Shown here piece by piece: positions 9,610 to 26,745 of a stretch of 64,000 nt of DNA. The position numbers and the translations under genes are program-made. Numbering within the stretch: position 1 is the stretch's first letter; each line of letters opens with the position of its first letter. Below the pieces are notes generated by a model, which was given only the letters and a program-made list of their open reading frames with translations, was not told where the DNA came from and did no database searches. Source of the stretch: a virus. The stretch covers positions 9,268 through 73,267 of IMG/VR virus record IMGVR_UViG_3300042306_000227. One strand, 5' to 3'.

Positions 9610-10536
9610 ATGGCACTATCAAAAACCAAAAAGGTTTTGGATGAGAATGGCGATATTATTGACCAATCTGAACCAACAACCGAACAGGCTTTATCTGCAG
9701 TCGCAGTAGAAGAAGCCCCAATCGTAAAGAAAAAAGAAGTAAAAAAGGAAGAACCTAAGACTTATGTTTTTAGGTTAATTACAAACGCCTCTCCAAGTGA
9801 CAAGCGTCAATTTCCTCCTCGTTTCATGGTAGCAAACACAGATATTGTGTACGACAGTGAAACTGGTATGAAAAGAGCTGTAAGATACTTGCCTGGCGTA
9901 AACACATTATGGGCTGATGAGCAAGACTCTTTGCCTGAGAATGTTGTAAACAAAAGGCCTAATATCGGATTTATGGATGGATACATGTATGTACCATCTT
10001 CTGATACTATGCTTGTTAAGTTCTTGACTATTAGCAATAGATGCATTAATAACGAGAACAGAGACGAAAATGTTCAACCAACTTACGAGTTGATGAACTT
10101 TGAGGCTATGAGCAAGAAGAAAATAGAATCAGTTAAAACTAAGCATGAGGCTATGAAAGTAGCGCTTTCTGCATCTGATGAAACAATGATGGAGCATGCT
10201 GAATACTTAGGTATTACAAGTATTAATGCTCAGGGTATTGAAAAGGATGAAGATGAGATTCGTGTAGAATACGTAGCTGTAGCTGAAAATAAGCCAGATG
10301 TATTTTTGAAATCATACAATAATCCTACAACAAAAGCGTTTGCATTGATTAAGAGAGCTTTTGCTATCGGTAAAATCACAGAGTCTATTGTTTTAGGTCA
10401 GGTTCATTGGGCTGAGACTCGTTCTCTAATAGCTACAATACCTTCTGGAATTAGCACAATTGACCATTTGGTTAAGTTCTGTTTCAAGGAAGGGGATGGA
10501 CAAAGATTCTACGATAGACTAAAGTCTGAAAAATAG
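9610..10536 (+). CDS. Conserved head-region protein (function uncertain)
   Basis: 308 aa with own promoter (TATCTTTG 9586-93) and terminator. Confidence 0.7.
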   Translation: MALSKTKKVLDENGDIIDQSEPTTEQALSAVAVEEAPIVKKKEVKKEEPKTYVFRLITNASPSDKRQFPPRFMVANTDIVYDSETGMKRAVRYLPGVNTLWADEQDSLPENVVNKRPNIGFMDGYMYVPSSDTMLVKFLTISNRCINNENRDENVQPTYELMNFEAMSKKKIESVKTKHEAMKVALSASDETMMEHAEYLGITSINAQGIEKDEDEIRVEYVAVAENKPDVFLKSYNNPTTKAFALIKRAFAIGKITESIVLGQVHWAETRSLIATIPSGISTIDHLVKFCFKEGDGQRFYDRLKSEK

Positions 10537-18746: not shown

Positions 18747-18789
18747 AATCATCAAAATAAAAACATAACTTTGCTTATATACCAAGGTT

Positions 18790-21700
18790 ATGAATTTTGA
18801 ACAAAATTTTAGTCCATTAGACCCCAACAGTGAAGAGTATCAATCAGTAGATAATTTTGGACAAGAGTTAGACCCTCTTGCGCCTAAAAAACCAAAAACA
18901 ATACCAGGTACAAATGTTCCAATAGGGGGCACTGGTATACCTGTTACAAAGGTAGATAAGCCATTTACTCAAATTGAGAATTCTATTAAGTCTGTTAAGA
19001 CAGCTAATACAGAATACCAAAACTTACTTGCCAAAAAAGGTGGTGCAAGCTCTGTTTATGGAGAAGCCCCTGGCGATGAAATAGAGAGAAATAAGCAATT
19101 TACATCTGCGTTAAAATCACAATCTGACGAGTTATTAAAAAAATATTCTAATGATATTAATAAACCTATAGACCAGGTTATTTCTTCTGGTAAATGGGAG
19201 GAATATATAACTGAATCTGGAGGGTTTAATTACGACAAAGCAAGAGGTTACTTTGACTATGTAGTAAAGCAAAATGGTGGTGGAACATACGTAAGAGACT
19301 TAATGATATCTAAGTTTCAAAATGCAGTAGTTGCCAAGAAAAATGAAAAAGATGTAAAGCCATTCTTAAAAGAAGAGATTGCTAAGACTGGATTAAATCT
19401 AGATAAAGATGGCAATGTAGACTTTGCAAGTATTATAGGTACTGAAAACTTAAAAGCTGGCCAAGAGGCTAAATTAAAGTCTATTGCACCTGCTCAATTT
19501 AACAAATTACAGTTAATAGAAAGCGATTCTGAAAAGCAGGTTAATCAATTACTTAATGCATCAAAAGATGTGTTTAAGCAGGAAGAACTTAAGTTTAATA
19601 CATTAAAACAGCAGGTTCAGGCTCAGTTAACAGCTGGTCAAATAACACAAGAAGAGGCACAGAATACAATTAATGATGCACTATCTGGTATTAATCAAAT
19701 GTCAGAGTCATTAAATAATGATTTTCAGAAAGCTGTTAGAGATATCAGAGTAAAGACTTCTTCTAAGTATGCAAGAATATCTAAAGAGATTGGAGCTATT
19801 GGCTCTGGTATGTCATTAGATGATATTATATCTGGTTTACCAAAAGATAAGCAAAAAGAAGTAAGAGATAGAGTTGAAGCTGCTAAGGCGAAGGTAAATA
19901 TTGCATATGAAAATGCTTACTCAAAATTATCTTCTACAAAAAATGAAGGCAAGAAAGCACAAGAATCTATGATAGGACTTGGTGGACTTGCTGGAAAATC
20001 ATTCTTAAGTGGGTGGAATAATGGCTTAGCTTCATTAGGAGGTTATCTTAACATGAACGGAATTGATAACAGTTTTGCAGATTGGTTAAGAGCTCATTCT
20101 ACAACAGGAGAAGAATTAGCTCCAGCACAATACGAGTGGAGTGGTAAAGAATGGTATAAAAGAGGTATCTCTTCTGCTATGCAATCAACAGGTATGAGTC
20201 TACCTACAATGGCACCTACATTAGCTATTACAGCAGCTGGAACAGCAGCTGGAGTACCTGCGGTAGGTCTTGCTGTTATAAATGGTGTATTAGGATATTT
20301 AGGAGAAAGAAACCAAAACTCATTTGAAGTATACGATAAAGAGATTAAGAAAGGTAGTAATCCAAATGATGCTTTAATTAAAGCGGAAACATTTGAAAGA
20401 ATGTCTGTTTCTGAATTGCCATTCCATTTATTAGGAGGTTTAGCTGACGTTAAATTATTCCAACTTGGAGCAAGTGCTACAAAGAGTGCAGGCAAGGGAG
20501 TTAAGTCTATTGTTACAGAATATGGGAAAAGCTTTGGAGGGGAATTATTAGAAGAGTATCCAACTGAGTTATTACAAAACTATAATCAAGCAAAACTTGA
20601 TGGGTATAAAGGTAGCTTATTTGAATATGGAGCATCTAACCCAGAATTATTTTTAGATACATTAGTATCTACATTAGGTCAAGGCAGTGTGTTTGCTGGT
20701 GCTGGTAAAGTATTTGGGGCATTCACAAGCGCAGCCCCAGAATCAAGAATTCAGTTTTATACTGACATGATTCAAAAGAATGGGATTGAATATGCTAAGA
20801 CGGTTGCGAAGAAGTATTATGATTCAGGTATATTAGATGGTGCAACTGCAACTTCTGTGTCAGCTGAAATTGATGATGCTTCTAAAATATATTCAGACTT
20901 ATTAGAGTCTGGTTTAGATGACAATGCTGCTAAATTGTATGTAGCAATGCATTATCAGTCTAAGAGCTTATCTTCAAAAGCGGATAATAAAAAAGAATCT
21001 GTAATGGGTTCTCTTGCTAAGTTACAGCTTGCTAATACACAATCTCAAATGAAGGAATTAGCTAATGGAACACTCCCATATGTTGTTATGGAGATACCAG
21101 GAGGCGAAAACTCTTCAAGAGTAATATCATTACAAGACTTTAACACACTTACTCCTGCTCAAAAAACAAATGTAATACAAGCATCTAACTCAATCAGTGT
21201 AATAAATGATGAAGACGCTAACACGTCATTACAAGAGCAAAAGAAGCAGTTAGGCAATACACCTAATGCTCCTGTTGGTCTATTTACCAATAACATTAAA
21301 ACAACTCAAGATGCCACTCAAGAAAGCACAAGGGAAGAGCAAATCAGCACTGAACAAGGCGGTATCAGCCAATATCAGGGAACTCAACCAATCCAAGAAC
21401 AAGCGACCAATGAAACAAAAGATAGCAATCGCCCTATCAGCGGCACGAAGAAAGTAATAACGCTTCAGAATATAAATGAGATTGAACAGATTGAAGGCAA
21501 TAATACTCAGAAAAAAGTATTAGGCGATGTAAAAAATGTTACGTCATCAATAGCTGGATTTGTTCAGCAAGATACAGGCAGCGAATTAAAGGTTAATATA
21601 CACGACCAAAACTCATTTACACAGGCTGTATTAGAAGCTGGTGGAACACAACAAGATGCAAAGTCAAAAGGGTTCTATATGTCTTCAGATGGAAACATAC

Positions 21701-24700
21701 ATTTAAACATGGACAATGTTTCAGAGGACACAATGTTACACGAAGGATTCCATCCTGTGTTAGACTATATAGAAAAAAATAGTCCAGACACAATGAATAG
21801 CCTTTTTGAGCAATTAAAGTCTATACCTCAAGCTCAAGATTTTGTTCAGAAAGCTGAGGCTGCTTACAATGAGAATGGTAGTATTACTGTTAAAAAAGAA
21901 GCAATTACAGACTTTATAGCTAACGTAGCTAATGGTAACGTTAAGGTTGATGCTACTAATTTAGAGACATTAAAGAATTATATAATAGGGTTGTTAAATA
22001 AGTTAGGGTTAAATCTTAAGCAGAATAGAATTTTAAATTTAGAAACTGCAGAAGACTTAAAGAATCTAGCTACATTTATAACAGAAAAGTTTACCTCTGG
22101 AAGTGAAATAACACAATCAGAACTTGGAAAATTTGTAGAAACCAAACCTACTGCTGAAAATCCAATTGCAAAATCTGGACAACTTCAATTTAGTAAAACA
22201 ATATATGGTGAGTCTGGTATAGAAAAATCTCCAGCACTGGATAGTGACGAGTTTGTTCAAGCTGTTCAAGATGGTAGAATATCTGTATCTAACCCATATC
22301 AATCTTTGATGGGTAAGTTTTTTGGGATTACATTCCCAGATGATTTATTTACTGGAGAACTAAAAGTAAATGGAGAAACTGTAGGTTTTGGGTTCGGTGG
22401 AGTTTTTTATGTTGCAAAATTTGGAGCTAAAGGATTAGCTTGGGCATCAGTTGGCAAGCAGTCAGCAAGCAACTTTACTATACAAGCTAATGCAAGCTTA
22501 AAAAAGAATAACGGAGAAGGTATTATTGTTTTATCAAAAGGAGATGATATTAAGCATGCTACATCTCTTCAAGCAAAGGTTGCATTTATTAATACATTAT
22601 TGAAGTACGCTGAAAACAATAATCAAGGAGAGTCTTTGGTTAAGTCTATAAGAAAAATATATAATATTGGTAACGCAAAGAGTCCTAGTAAAATTATTGA
22701 GTACTTTAATAATTACCTAGCTTCTGGAAGAATGGAATCTGGTCAAACAATGTTTGATGCTAAGGGTTCATTTGACAACTTAATGACTTCTATAATAAAA
22801 GAAGCGCAGCCTGTTATTACAAAAATGTTTCAAGATATGGGGCTTGAAGGAGATACATATTTTGATAAAACTCAATTAAGAAAGGATAATAAAATAGCTA
22901 CTACAAAGGGTTTAAAGTCTTTGTATGCAGACATGCTTCAAGAAGACTTTTTAAAAGGAGCTCCTAAAGGTGGCATATATGCAGCTATTAAATTTAGTAG
23001 CGAGTTAGAATATGTAGTTGATAAATCACATCCTTCTTATCCATATGTAATAAAAACTAAAGATGGCTCTCCTGTTAAATTAGAAGTTTTTAGTAAAACA
23101 TTTAATGCATATGGTAAAGATGTTGCAGTAAAAGGTGTTGAAAGAAATACACAAAATGCATTTGGAGTAGTAACAACAACAAAGCCTAATTTCCAAATTA
23201 ATGAGGAAATGGAAGGCAATAAATCAGAGCATATTTTATCTAATAAGTTAGATGCTTATGAAGCAATATCAAAAGGTAAATCTGCTCCACAATTCCAAAA
23301 AGATATAGTACCTACAGGTGGTGTCCCATCTGTGCCAGGAGAAACAGGAGTTGGAGAAGCAAATCAACCATCAGGATTGCCAGAAAAGAAAAAGTATTCT
23401 TGGGAGAAGGGTACATCTGGTAAGCCAGAGCCAGGAGAGACTATGATTAAGACATCTACTGGAAGATATGTCGCTATTGAGACTATGGCTGGTCAAATGA
23501 TGGATAGAGATAAGGTTATTAATGAAATAAAGAAAGCAGAACCTTCATTCTTTTCAAAGCACATTAGAGATATAAGAACTAAATGGCGTGACAATCAATA
23601 TAATGTATTAAAATCTCTTTCTGAAATAGGCAAAAGCGGGATGCTTGTAAAGCATTATTTACTTACAAGAAATAGCGCATCTGCAACTGCAACTGCAGCA
23701 GTAGAATCTGCTATTAAAGAAATATATGGGAAGATATCAAAGAAGAAAACCTTTAATATCAATGGAGCTAAGGTCACAGAATATGTTTTGTTTAATCAAA
23801 TGATTAATTATCAAAGGGTTATATCAATACAAGAACAAATGAACGATGCTTATAAGACTATGATAAGCTCTGAGCCTGGTTCACAAGAATATAACAAAGC
23901 AAAAAAGAAATTGCTTGATAACAATATGATTGATGTGAATGGTGATTATGTAGGAGAAAGTTTAGATACTGAATTCGCAATGGGTAATGTCACTGCAACT
24001 CAATCAAAAGCTTTGCTTTATGAGATAAGAGAATCAATAGGAGAAGAGTCTTTTGATAAGTTAATGAATGCTTCTGAGAAATATAGCAACCATTTTAATA
24101 AGATGATGAAAGAAAGATATGAGGCTGGTTTAATATCAGAAGACACATACAAATATCTTTCAAAGTTCTACTATGCTCCAGGCAGATACGTTAGTGATGT
24201 TTTAATTGACCCTATACTATCTATTGCAAAAACAACTCCAACATATCAAAGTACTTCTATATTGAAAATGAGGAGTCTTGCTGGAGGTACAGAAAGATTA
24301 AATCTAAATGATTACGAAGGATTATTAAGAGCTGTAACATATGCGTCTGAATATTCAATAGCAGAGAATAGGGCAACAAATAGATTCTATGACTTAATAT
24401 CAGAAAATAAAACACAGTTCAATAGTAGTGGTATTAGACTTGGTACAAAATTAGTTCCTATTGAAGCAGAAGGCCCAGTTAAGTTTGATATTATTGATGA
24501 AAAGGTAATAGCTATACAAGAAGGTAAAGCAAAGTCTGCATTAGAATTACCTAGTGGACAAAAGCAATTGCCTTATAAAGGTATTCAAAAGCCATCAGAT
24601 ATGCCAGTCGGTAAGTATATTCAACCAATTGATATTGTACTAGATGAAGATGGAAATAAGTTTAGAGTAGTATACGAAACTCCTAAAGTAGGTGAAGATA

Positions 24701-26745
24701 TTATTAAAACATATTATAATGGTCAACAATATGATATTATAGTTCCAGCTTGGTTTGCTGATGCATGGTATAACAGGAATATGGCTACAGGAGATACGTC
24801 TTCCTTAATAGCTAAAATAACTGGAGCAAATGTTTTAAGGCTAGTAGCTACTGGTATTAACCCTGTATTCGGTATTGCTCAAATTGTACCAGATACAATA
24901 TCAGCATATGCATCCACACTAGAAGAAAGAAAACTTCCTTTGCTTATAGACTACCCTAGGTTCTTTATAAAGACATTAGCTGCTTCAAGGGATATTATGA
25001 AAAAAACAGATGATTTTAAAGAAGCGACTAAATATGGAGCTACTACAAATTTCTACAACGGAGGTTCTGTTTCTTTTGAAAGAGGATTGATGGGTCTAGA
25101 GGATAAGTCTTTAGAGAAGGTTGTAGAAGAGTGGAATGTGCCTGTGTTAAAACAGTATGTTATGGGGTCTAAAAGAATCACAGAGACTACAGAACAAATG
25201 ACAAAAGTTGCTATATATAAAGAGATAAGAGACAGAAAAATAAAAGAATTTAAGCAGGAGAATAATAGAGAGCCAAACTCGCAAGAACTAGAAGACATAA
25301 AAATAGAGTCTGGGTCTATGGCAAGAGGTACTGCTGATTTCCATAGAAAGGGTTCTAGCGCATCTAATGTGAATAAGGTTATACCATACTTAAATGCAGC
25401 TATACAAATTAACAGAGCTGTATTAAGGTCTATTAAAAAGAATCCAATGAAAGCTGTATACTACTCTATGGAGTATATGGGTCATGCTGCTGTATTTAGT
25501 TTAATGGCTATGGGAGCTGGTGATGATGATGAATTAAAAGAAAAGAAAAGAAGGGCATACTTAGGTCTTAGTGAATTTGAGAGGGATAATAACTTTTTAA
25601 TGTACTTTAATGAGTCAGAAGGAAAGTTTGTAGCTCAAAAACTACCTTCATTCTTAGTCCCATTTAATGCATTTTCAAGAAGGCTTACAGAAAGAATATA
25701 CCTTGAGAAAAAAGAGATTACACCAAAAGACATTCGTGAAATTGCGTCTAGTGTAGCAGATATGTTCCCTTTATTGCAAATATTAAATGTTGAAAAAACT
25801 TTATCTAGAAACCCAGCATATAGCTTTGCAGCAAAACTATTCTTCAATAGAGACCCTTATAGACAAGAAGCGGTAGCTAAATACGATGAGTCTACAAAAA
25901 ACTACCTAGAAGGAGCTATGATAGGGAAAGAGCAATCTTCTGCATTTTCAAGAAAAATAGGTGAGTTAACAAAAAATGGAGTGCCATTATTCCCAGAAGG
26001 TATTTCTCCAAAAAGACTTGATGCGGCACTTGGCTCTATACCATTCCAATCTAACCCAATATCAGCATTCCCATTATTTGCGGCAGATGCAACAAGTATA
26101 ACAATGGAAGAATTTGAAGAAAAGTACGGCAAGAATGCTGCTAGTATCATTCTGTCTGCAAGTGGAATCTCAAAAAGATACTTTAAGGGCGGAAGTAGAA
26201 TAAATCAAAATTTAGCTGGATTATCACTTGAGAATATAAAAGACAGAGGCGAAATGAAAAACAAGATAGCTGAAATGATTCTGCCAAAGTTTGAAGAATT
26301 TACAAAGAATATGACTAGAGAAGATGCATTTGTAAAGGCAACTGAAGATTTTATATCAAATGAGTTTGATAAGTTAACGGTTGAGCAAAAGATAATAGCT
26401 CAAGGATATATAACTGGCGACCTTAGAGGTAGAATATTTAATGTTACAAAAGACAAGCAAGTATCTCAAATATTAAATATGGAAGACCCTAATGCTAAGA
26501 TAGATGCTATATTGTACACAATGAAGAATGTTAGAACCACAGATAGCTCAAGAGATGCATTTATAAACGAGCTTGTTCAAAATGGGATAACAGCTAACGA
26601 GTCTTTTGGTAGAATGTTAGCAGTAAGAGGTGAACAAGAACTTCCAAACCCAGAGACTGGTGTAATGGAGAAGAATAACAGGTATGAAAAAGAGGTAGGA
26701 GAGCTGTTGAAGAAACTGACAATAATCTTTGAAAAGTCTCAATAA
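18790..26745 (+). CDS. Giant internal virion protein with zincin-like HExxH and LPD38-like C-terminal region
   Basis: 2651 aa; TMLHEGFH at 21739-21753; DFHRKG..IPYLNAAIQ..ERDNNF pattern near the C-terminus. Confidence 0.7.
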   Translation: MNFEQNFSPLDPNSEEYQSVDNFGQELDPLAPKKPKTIPGTNVPIGGTGIPVTKVDKPFTQIENSIKSVKTANTEYQNLLAKKGGASSVYGEAPGDEIERNKQFTSALKSQSDELLKKYSNDINKPIDQVISSGKWEEYITESGGFNYDKARGYFDYVVKQNGGGTYVRDLMISKFQNAVVAKKNEKDVKPFLKEEIAKTGLNLDKDGNVDFASIIGTENLKAGQEAKLKSIAPAQFNKLQLIESDSEKQVNQLLNASKDVFKQEELKFNTLKQQVQAQLTAGQITQEEAQNTINDALSGINQMSESLNNDFQKAVRDIRVKTSSKYARISKEIGAIGSGMSLDDIISGLPKDKQKEVRDRVEAAKAKVNIAYENAYSKLSSTKNEGKKAQESMIGLGGLAGKSFLSGWNNGLASLGGYLNMNGIDNSFADWLRAHSTTGEELAPAQYEWSGKEWYKRGISSAMQSTGMSLPTMAPTLAITAAGTAAGVPAVGLAVINGVLGYLGERNQNSFEVYDKEIKKGSNPNDALIKAETFERMSVSELPFHLLGGLADVKLFQLGASATKSAGKGVKSIVTEYGKSFGGELLEEYPTELLQNYNQAKLDGYKGSLFEYGASNPELFLDTLVSTLGQGSVFAGAGKVFGAFTSAAPESRIQFYTDMIQKNGIEYAKTVAKKYYDSGILDGATATSVSAEIDDASKIYSDLLESGLDDNAAKLYVAMHYQSKSLSSKADNKKESVMGSLAKLQLANTQSQMKELANGTLPYVVMEIPGGENSSRVISLQDFNTLTPAQKTNVIQASNSISVINDEDANTSLQEQKKQLGNTPNAPVGLFTNNIKTTQDATQESTREEQISTEQGGISQYQGTQPIQEQATNETKDSNRPISGTKKVITLQNINEIEQIEGNNTQKKVLGDVKNVTSSIAGFVQQDTGSELKVNIHDQNSFTQAVLEAGGTQQDAKSKGFYMSSDGNIHLNMDNVSEDTMLHEGFHPVLDYIEKNSPDTMNSLFEQLKSIPQAQDFVQKAEAAYNENGSITVKKEAITDFIANVANGNVKVDATNLETLKNYIIGLLNKLGLNLKQNRILNLETAEDLKNLATFITEKFTSGSEITQSELGKFVETKPTAENPIAKSGQLQFSKTIYGESGIEKSPALDSDEFVQAVQDGRISVSNPYQSLMGKFFGITFPDDLFTGELKVNGETVGFGFGGVFYVAKFGAKGLAWASVGKQSASNFTIQANASLKKNNGEGIIVLSKGDDIKHATSLQAKVAFINTLLKYAENNNQGESLVKSIRKIYNIGNAKSPSKIIEYFNNYLASGRMESGQTMFDAKGSFDNLMTSIIKEAQPVITKMFQDMGLEGDTYFDKTQLRKDNKIATTKGLKSLYADMLQEDFLKGAPKGGIYAAIKFSSELEYVVDKSHPSYPYVIKTKDGSPVKLEVFSKTFNAYGKDVAVKGVERNTQNAFGVVTTTKPNFQINEEMEGNKSEHILSNKLDAYEAISKGKSAPQFQKDIVPTGGVPSVPGETGVGEANQPSGLPEKKKYSWEKGTSGKPEPGETMIKTSTGRYVAIETMAGQMMDRDKVINEIKKAEPSFFSKHIRDIRTKWRDNQYNVLKSLSEIGKSGMLVKHYLLTRNSASATATAAVESAIKEIYGKISKKKTFNINGAKVTEYVLFNQMINYQRVISIQEQMNDAYKTMISSEPGSQEYNKAKKKLLDNNMIDVNGDYVGESLDTEFAMGNVTATQSKALLYEIRESIGEESFDKLMNASEKYSNHFNKMMKERYEAGLISEDTYKYLSKFYYAPGRYVSDVLIDPILSIAKTTPTYQSTSILKMRSLAGGTERLNLNDYEGLLRAVTYASEYSIAENRATNRFYDLISENKTQFNSSGIRLGTKLVPIEAEGPVKFDIIDEKVIAIQEGKAKSALELPSGQKQLPYKGIQKPSDMPVGKYIQPIDIVLDEDGNKFRVVYETPKVGEDIIKTYYNGQQYDIIVPAWFADAWYNRNMATGDTSSLIAKITGANVLRLVATGINPVFGIAQIVPDTISAYASTLEERKLPLLIDYPRFFIKTLAASRDIMKKTDDFKEATKYGATTNFYNGGSVSFERGLMGLEDKSLEKVVEEWNVPVLKQYVMGSKRITETTEQMTKVAIYKEIRDRKIKEFKQENNREPNSQELEDIKIESGSMARGTADFHRKGSSASNVNKVIPYLNAAIQINRAVLRSIKKNPMKAVYYSMEYMGHAAVFSLMAMGAGDDDELKEKKRRAYLGLSEFERDNNFLMYFNESEGKFVAQKLPSFLVPFNAFSRRLTERIYLEKKEITPKDIREIASSVADMFPLLQILNVEKTLSRNPAYSFAAKLFFNRDPYRQEAVAKYDESTKNYLEGAMIGKEQSSAFSRKIGELTKNGVPLFPEGISPKRLDAALGSIPFQSNPISAFPLFAADATSITMEEFEEKYGKNAASIILSASGISKRYFKGGSRINQNLAGLSLENIKDRGEMKNKIAEMILPKFEEFTKNMTREDAFVKATEDFISNEFDKLTVEQKIIAQGYITGDLRGRIFNVTKDKQVSQILNMEDPNAKIDAILYTMKNVRTTDSSRDAFINELVQNGITANESFGRMLAVRGEQELPNPETGVMEKNNRYEKEVGELLKKLTIIFEKSQ
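21311..21457 (+). CDS. Overprinted small basic protein (48 aa) nested in the giant gene
   Basis: MPLKKAQGKSKSALNKAVSANIRELNQSKNKRPMKQKIAIALSAARRK; A-rich start context aacattaaaacaactcaagATG. Confidence 0.65.
   Translation: MPLKKAQGKSKSALNKAVSANIRELNQSKNKRPMKQKIAIALSAARRK

Follow-up and report, generated by a model that had tools for sequence, protein, structure and literature searches.

A stretch of 64,000 nucleotides from an uncultured virus (IMG/VR record IMGVR_UViG_3300042306_000227; bases 9268-73267 of the 73,267-nt record, and referred to here as the window) carries a giant gene of the virion module, and within that gene, in a shifted reading frame, a complete 48-codon gene for a small and strongly basic protein. 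We conclude that this is very probably a true dual-coding stretch with two products, arranged in the style of the Rz/Rz1 genes of phage lambda. The small open reading frame (ORF) has homologues with E-values down to 6.8e-12, is intact in all 25 related viral loci and shows a coding pattern of substitution, and it is therefore far beyond what chance would provide. The features that bear on this conclusion are as follows, all on the plus strand.

18790..26745, plus strand: host gene, a giant ORF of 2651 amino acids in the virion module (from the ORF list)
21291..21310, plus strand: A-rich, weakly folded leader within the host coding sequence, a putative initiation region lacking a Shine-Dalgarno sequence
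21310..21459, plus strand: host-gene codons 841-890, a Q/E/T/S/G-rich linker on the DNA of the small gene (from translation and composition)
21311..21457, plus strand: embedded small gene, 48 amino acids plus stop, net charge +13, phrog_2423/DUF6496-related
21455..21460, plus strand: tandem stops TAA TAA ending the small frame (from the sequence)

A complete gene out of frame within a giant gene

The small ORF runs intact from ATG to TAA, reads MPLKKAQGKSKSALNKAVSANIRELNQSKNKRPMKQKIAIALSAARRK, and lies wholly inside the giant ORF in the +1 frame (21311-18790 = 2521 = 3x840+1), so that the two form an embedded out-of-frame pair, defined as a complete start-to-stop ORF inside another on the same strand but in a different frame. 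Read in the giant frame, the same DNA encodes DATQESTREEQISTEQGGISQYQGTQPIQEQATNETKDSNRPISGTKKVI (residues 841-890), in which Q, E, T, S and G make up 60% of the residues versus 34% in the giant protein as a whole. A first-pass annotation, made from the sequence alone, had described a complete small basic gene lying out of frame in a giant gene and opposite a compositionally simple linker, and both descriptions are accurate. An alternative in-frame ATG upstream at 21266 would give a product of 63 amino acids; its context score is poor (-3.96, versus +3.76 for the ATG at 21311), and MPL is the start of every homologue of the small protein. The gene is present as a single copy in the whole 73,267-nt record.

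The 48-residue peptide matches the PHROG family phrog_2423 (E 4.8e-5, 24.3 bits, residues 1-48 on profile positions 1-40 of 52); PHROGs have no curated cut-off, and the match extends over most of the profile length, which is the test of membership. A collection of 5.8 billion proteins yielded 39 called proteins of 49-72 amino acids with 54-78% identity, and an exhaustive HMMER search of cluster representatives returned 15 at E<=1e-3, nearly all of 49-78 amino acids and aligned from residue 1. Among the 34 aligned family members, 11 match Pfam DUF6496 (PF20106) at E<=0.1; relative to its gathering cut-off of 24 bits, protein P0038 passes at 28.3, and the nested copies in loci L021 (22.8) and L019 (20.9) are just under. 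The ESM Atlas returned nothing but unnamed clusters of viral proteins and a single cluster in which 32% of members carry DUF6496, and a literature search on DUF6496 found no paper. We also observed that P0040, a repetitive protein of 615 amino acids, is matched by the 48-residue query in 8 stretches (27% identity, E 1.6e-8), which may be a low-complexity artefact or an array of tandem motifs.

The first-pass annotation had ascribed the MPLKK..S.NIREL pattern to a family found as stand-alone phage genes, and proposed a search for stand-alone homologues of the peptide; they exist, as genes of 46-58 codons with the same pattern in 41 of the 110 loci described below and also in cultured phages. 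The cultured-phage members (Ralstonia phage RSB1 gp47, Pseudomonas phage K4 gp60, and one in Burkholderia phage BCSR129) are free-standing 'hypothetical proteins', all in late or structural regions. Among cultured phages, blastn of window positions 20800-22000 gave no match and tblastn of the 48-residue peptide recovered RSB1 only, at E 2; a more typical family member used as query found 10 cultured-phage records.

We compared 110 loci including the window (25 viral, four from genome collections, and the best 80 of 124 metagenome loci). Every one of the 25 viral loci has an undamaged small ORF; 19 of them have it inside a giant ORF, whereas in the other six it stands alone with a large gene on either side, and the in-frame stops that might have been expected in close relatives of a chance ORF are absent. 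Over the full set it is nested in 68 loci, stand-alone in 41 and fused in frame in one, although the alignment used to query the metagenomes was rich in nested forms and the 68:41 ratio is neither unbiased nor a population frequency. As certain contigs appear among both the viral and the metagenome loci, we also give counts of distinct sequences: 90 distinct small-ORF DNAs, of which 56 are nested, 33 stand-alone and one fused. The host frame is the small frame minus one in 68/68 nested loci, the nested host genes encode 2-3.8 thousand residues, and the 54 distinct nested proteins are all intact. In a side observation, the stand-alone loci L006, L007, L017 and L018 carry a 93-codon ORF (positions 9716-9997) that overlaps the last ~250 nt of the upstream gene A, is in the frame of the small gene, and ends one codon before its ATG; its products are 71-87% identical across these four loci, and this conservation may simply reflect that of gene A.

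Proposed initiation at the small gene and selection on both frames

The start of the small gene resembles real gene starts. The 20 nt preceding the ATG at 21311 are 55% A, versus 38% for the whole giant gene, and a position weight matrix built from 44 gene starts in the window scores this ATG at 3.76, sixth of 197 internal ATGs, whereas real starts scored by leaving each one out average 1.97 on the same matrix. The same holds across the 56 distinct nested copies, in which the proportion of A at -20 to -1 is 0.62 versus a background of 0.37 in a stretch that codes for the giant protein only, and the minimum free energy of folding from -30 to +30 is -2.07 versus -8.32 kcal/mol; the A-richness of +1 to +30 stems from lysine codons. 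The A-rich start context noted in the first-pass annotation is thus present both in the window and in its relatives. Such an A-rich, unfolded leader is the signature expected of initiation without a Shine-Dalgarno sequence, a mode typical of Bacteroidota. In the mechanism that we propose, ribosomes reading the giant gene would pass straight through to make a 2651-residue mosaic virion-module protein in which codons 841-890 serve only as a flexible linker, and other ribosomes, bound to the same late transcript by way of this leader, would initiate on their own at ATG 21311 to make a 48-residue, strongly basic, two-helix protein of the phrog_2423/DUF6496-related family.

A different route into the small frame would be a +1 shift by ribosomes of the giant gene near 21311, with termination at TAA TAA, such that the product is a truncated N-terminal portion of the giant protein with a basic tail. 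The frames do differ by +1 and the double stop does end the small frame, but we regard this as improbable, since M-P-L is invariant in 34/34 aligned members, including stand-alone genes that must start there, and in every locus the small frame is closed by a stop 1-19 codons ahead of the ATG (L004 and L025 have theirs at a distance of just 2 codons). The leader shares the A-rich, unfolded signature of real gene starts, and no slippery motif was seen by eye, no formal search for frameshift sites having been made.

Substitutions among nested copies follow the small frame. In 18 non-redundant nested copies the pairwise differences per small-frame codon position 1/2/3 are 0.259/0.190/0.413, and of the giant frame's positions it is the third that varies least. 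A set of 26 independent nested pairs yields 341 differences, split 88/44/209 by small-frame position 1/2/3. Of these, 204 leave the small protein as it is and alter the giant one, or 59.8% versus 20.3% of possible mutations (an excess of x2.94), and the reverse class, silent in the giant frame and altering the small protein, numbers 32, or 9.4% versus 20.6% (a deficit, x0.46); the few small-frame stops counted are an artefact, as codon changes of several bases were scored base by base. Stand-alone copies (ten pairs) give nearly the same pattern, x2.59 and x0.46, and the nested gene therefore evolves like a free gene.

The giant frame is constrained in another way. In the 20 nested loci that were checked the giant frame runs through the small ORF without a stop, whereas each of six stand-alone loci has 4-7, and the frame is open across the small ORF in all 68 nested loci; in a simulation, random synonymous encoding of the small protein with the codon usage of the window leaves the giant frame open with P = 4e-4. 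Differences that create a giant-frame stop are absent from the nested pairs, though such changes are 4.4% of possible mutations, and account for 12/254 differences in the stand-alone pairs. This comparison shows the small frame to be selected on its amino-acid sequence and the giant frame only for freedom from stops; being open yet otherwise almost free to vary, the giant frame behaves as expected of a linker. The first-pass suggestion that both frames remain coding, for which a frame-specific substitution analysis had been proposed, agrees with the third-position excess in the one frame and the exclusion of stops in the other.

These data also bear on whether the giant ORF is one protein at all. 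It could instead be a gene A, the small gene and a gene B in succession, with the open frame across them functionless; 41/110 loci do have that layout, and the gene B that lies downstream in stand-alone loci is ~23% identical to the C-terminal parts of giant genes. Yet the frame is open in 68/68 nested loci with a chance of ~4e-4 per lineage, the absence of stops from the 20 nested loci contrasts with the 4-7 found in stand-alone ones, the 26 nested pairs lack any stop-creating difference, and the N-terminal part has no terminal stop of its own, all of which make three separate genes very unlikely.

The embedded gene is a conserved island in a mosaic host. The neighbouring 1297-residue virion protein is 96.5% identical between the window and L001, its nearest relative, whereas between positions 18846 and 23365 the sole blastn match between the two is 21308-21444, at 95.6%. 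The same island is present in L002 and L008 at 77%, the small ORF is the only blastn match to the window in this region in L004 and L009, and the conserved DNA stops at the small-ORF borders. To its left, the N-terminal part of the window protein (residues 33-840) has no homologue in any fetched locus; to its right, the middle module (residues 890-1525) is absent from L001 and follows the nested ORF in L051, L057, L067 and L069 with 31-49% identity. The first ~30 codons and the C-terminal part of the giant gene are conserved. In a direct comparison of the giant genes (window 18790-26745 and L001 7987-16252), the N-terminal parts and middle modules are wholly different, which, set against the 96.5% identity of the neighbour, suggests that the modules to either side of the embedded gene were replaced recently. 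We note separately that window positions 18751-18853, the giant-gene start and ~40 nt before it, have 81-88% DNA identity with L001, L002 and L008, and that the ~800 codons that follow are unrelated to those loci; the conserved segment might act as a signal for packaging or incorporation, or it might be a start region that is conserved.

An island placed between two hypervariable, shuffled modules, the first without a homologue and the second present in some giants and absent from others, might be conserved as nucleic acid, as a recombination junction, RNA structure or binding site, with the ORF incidental. We consider that there is little prospect of this, since 209/341 differences fall on small-frame third positions, as they do in stand-alone genes, no locus has lost the ATG or the stop, the DNA conservation extends no further than the ORF, and the start region is selected for weak folding rather than for structure; a junction role in addition to coding could nonetheless be served. 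It is scarcely credible that the nested copies are disused remnants of a gene that once stood free, as purifying selection within nested-only pairs is as strong as in stand-alone genes, the 54 distinct nested proteins are intact to the last, and the genome of the window has no other copy.

Dual coding with independent initiation therefore remains the reading that we prefer, and several points beside the sampling bias already mentioned weigh against it. Codon-usage log-odds in the overlap prefer the giant frame (0.187, versus -0.52 for the small frame), although the overlap is among the 7/372 codon-usage windows in which the small frame does relatively best. The pair statistics use related sequences, and for the same reason the Wilcoxon p-values for the leader are not independent-sample probabilities. 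The window peptide matches no Pfam family at E<=1, and a six-frame search of its own genome with DUF6496 gave no match at E<=10; some of its relatives match and it does not, so that its link to DUF6496 runs through intermediates and falls short of formal membership. When Flavobacterium phage elemoD was searched with a profile for the small gene no match was returned, which is weak evidence that Elemovirus, the closest cultured phage genus examined, has no copy. The evidence that both products are made consists of the start-site signature, and the assignment of the giant gene as an ejection or cargo gene draws on its position, its size and a weak homology to a structural protein.

Origin of the overlap and known counterparts

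We infer that the overlap came about by extension of the long reading frame over a small gene that was already there. By the Keese-Gibbs criterion (PMC8227390) the frame with the wider phylogenetic distribution is the older, and here that is the small frame, whose family reaches far beyond the overlap. The direction of change in the present loci is less clear. In a tree of the neighbouring virion protein (16 rows, with L016 and L019-L025 left out as they have no such gene), four stand-alone loci form one well-supported clade and one change suffices to explain them; with one change and no reliable root, these loci may be ancestral, implying fusion, or secondary, implying fission. Nested and stand-alone members are found together in each loop-length class of the small protein, a hint that the change between the two occurred more than once. 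Codon usage was tried as a test of the older frame, and the small frame was not favoured. On balance we think it more likely that the overlap originated by fusion across an older gene, with secondary fission in the stand-alone clade as the alternative. The first-pass idea that a whole gene had been absorbed thus stands as to the wider distribution of the small family, but the tree gives it no direction and codon usage favours the giant frame.

A more specific scenario can be offered tentatively, and we hold it to be possible rather than probable: no new gene was invented within an old one; rather, a growing, modular, injected protein swallowed an older free-standing gene and uses it, out of frame, as a linker. 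The gene would then have been kept as the sole constant among modules that are otherwise exchanged, offering a homologous junction for their shuffling, and would couple the output of its small basic product to that of the giant partner. If true, the separated, embedded and fused forms would constitute a natural series for the birth and resolution of overlapping genes.

The nearest parallels are the spanin genes, lambda Rz/Rz1 and T7 18.5/18.7, where a double-stranded DNA phage likewise has one entire small gene enclosed by a larger one and read in its +1 frame. Other phages carry embedded, overlapped or separated forms of spanin pairs, and gene callers usually miss the embedded one (PMC6139136). 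According to that spanin survey, no family mixes embedded with overlapped or separated members, and a route through loss of a stop is only imagined, whereas the small family here has embedded, separated and in-frame fused members. The proteins and their functions are also unrelated, the small protein here having no lipobox or membrane anchor, and the host here is a virion-module gene of 2-3.8 thousand residues in which the overlapped segment is a linker unconstrained in sequence. RSB1 gp47 and K4 gp60 (phrog_2423/DUF6496) belong to the same family as the embedded gene and share its size, MPL start, ..S.NI.EL.. and ..KQ.IAIALS.A.. motifs and basic tail, but they are free-standing whereas the window copy is embedded out of frame.

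Classical overprinting, as described for phiX174 and many RNA viruses (PMC8227390), likewise involves two frames under asymmetric constraint. There the embedded frame is the new one, whereas here the embedded frame is the wider-spread and the host linker lacks homologues; it appears that the long gene grew over an older small gene. Polyvalent proteins (Iyer et al. 2017, PMC5512222) and Elemovirus gp72 are likewise very large mosaic proteins encoded among virion genes, but the window giant has no polyvalent-protein domain by profile. A literature search on embedded and overlapping genes, on internal virion and ejection proteins, and on fusion over an intervening gene found no prior description of such an arrangement.

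Standard gene callers cannot report an embedded gene, and a protein with at least 54 distinct embedded forms has consequently gone unannotated in uncultured phages of Bacteroidota type. The presence of free, embedded and in-frame fused forms in one family makes it unusually informative on the evolution of overlapping genes, and the cost of embedding is visible in it, in that the small protein is preserved in sequence but loses those synonymous codons that would put a stop into the giant frame. It suggests, further, that a giant virion protein can lengthen when its reading frame runs on through the gene next to it.

The giant gene, its genome context and the role of the small protein

The gene order in the window is large terminase, portal, virion proteins, the 1297-residue virion protein, two smaller genes, the giant gene and tail-fibre genes. 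The giant gene, laid out as a conserved first ~30 residues, a unique N-terminal part, a shuffled middle module and a conserved C-terminal part, thus sits in the virion module between the tube and portal-side genes and the tail fibres, the position expected of a gene for a packaged or ejected polyvalent protein. The portal is 26% identical to those of Flavobacterium podophages (Elemovirus) and Cellulophaga phages, and Flavobacterium phage elemoD has the same gene order, with a giant gp72 that is labelled 'structural protein' in its record and that aligns with residues 933-1434 of the window giant at 21.7% identity (E 6e-9). Four related contigs are in metagenome-assembled genomes (MAGs) labelled Chitinophagaceae, Ferruginibacter, Gillisia and Candidatus Fokinia. 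The last of these, L032, is a genome contig with a nested copy, binned in a MAG labelled Candidatus Fokinia solitaria; as the other three MAG matches are Bacteroidota, this label is probably a binning artefact. Taken together, the portal identity, the elemoD gene order and the MAG labels make a Bacteroidota host likely.

The giant protein is probably packaged or ejected, judging from the company its gene keeps. It has no significant Pfam, PHROG or PDB sequence match, and no effector, LPD or peptidase domain by profile; when other giants and the flanking genes A and B were compared with PHROG, only families of unknown function came up. One further feature was found by a regular-expression scan.

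21739..21753, plus strand: HEGFH (HExxH), host residues 984-988, 95 residues past the embedded gene

This is the single HExxH in the whole giant protein, and an HExxH lies within 700 residues after the nested ORF in 23/56 distinct nested loci. We also observed HEGFH, HEGAH or HEAFH 85-390 residues past the nested gene in many giants (L009, L051, L054, L057, L066, L067, L019-L025 and others). The motif may mark a zincin-type peptidase module like the MPTases of polyvalent proteins; the module that follows the ORF in the window giant has no Pfam profile match. As a candidate relative of this module we tried P0105, an in-frame fusion protein discussed below, and rejected it, the BLASTP match not being significant (E 3.2).

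An AlphaFold2 model of the small protein (34-row alignment, pLDDT 87.7) places helices at residues 11-27 and 34-46, and the protein is predicted with confidence to be a two-helix hairpin following a basic N-terminal tail. Sequence searches of solved structures gave no match, and a fold search of the model gave none at E<=0.001, the best being E 2.3 in the PDB and E 0.45 in BFVD, where the top matches are uncharacterised small phage proteins including that of RSB1. The first-pass proposal of a DNA-condensing core protein is not sustained, there being no fold or sequence match to anything characterised, and so specific a role is a guess. It is conceivable, and somewhat doubtful, that the small protein, basic as it is, is packaged and binds to nucleic acid or to acidic partners.

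A role alongside large proteins is better indicated. The small gene is always among late or virion genes, and in some phages its domain is part of a larger protein. In L108 (1491-3443) it forms the N terminus of a 650-residue protein (phrog_2423, E 2.8e-17) that adjoins a 'DNA ejection protein' match, and in all 72 longer proteins carry the small domain, including N-terminal fusions of 423-894 amino acids. P0105 carries in addition an HExxH and LPD23, a domain of large polyvalent proteins, which according to PMC5512222 are packaged in capsids and injected with the DNA. Since every copy lies in a late or structural module, and since some phages join the domain in frame to large proteins, we favour the view that the small protein works alongside large packaged virion or ejection proteins, and the phrog_2423/DUF6496-related basic family is a likely partner of such proteins.

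Two minor observations concern the large proteins themselves. The fusions in L108, P0083, P0085 and P0105 share a G-rich C-terminal block, '...VP.G.YV(I/V)P..VV...GEG...'. The window giant has a sole strongly hydrophobic segment at residues ~478-505 (about nt 20221-20304; Kyte-Doolittle >1.6 over 19 residues), which may be membrane-inserting.

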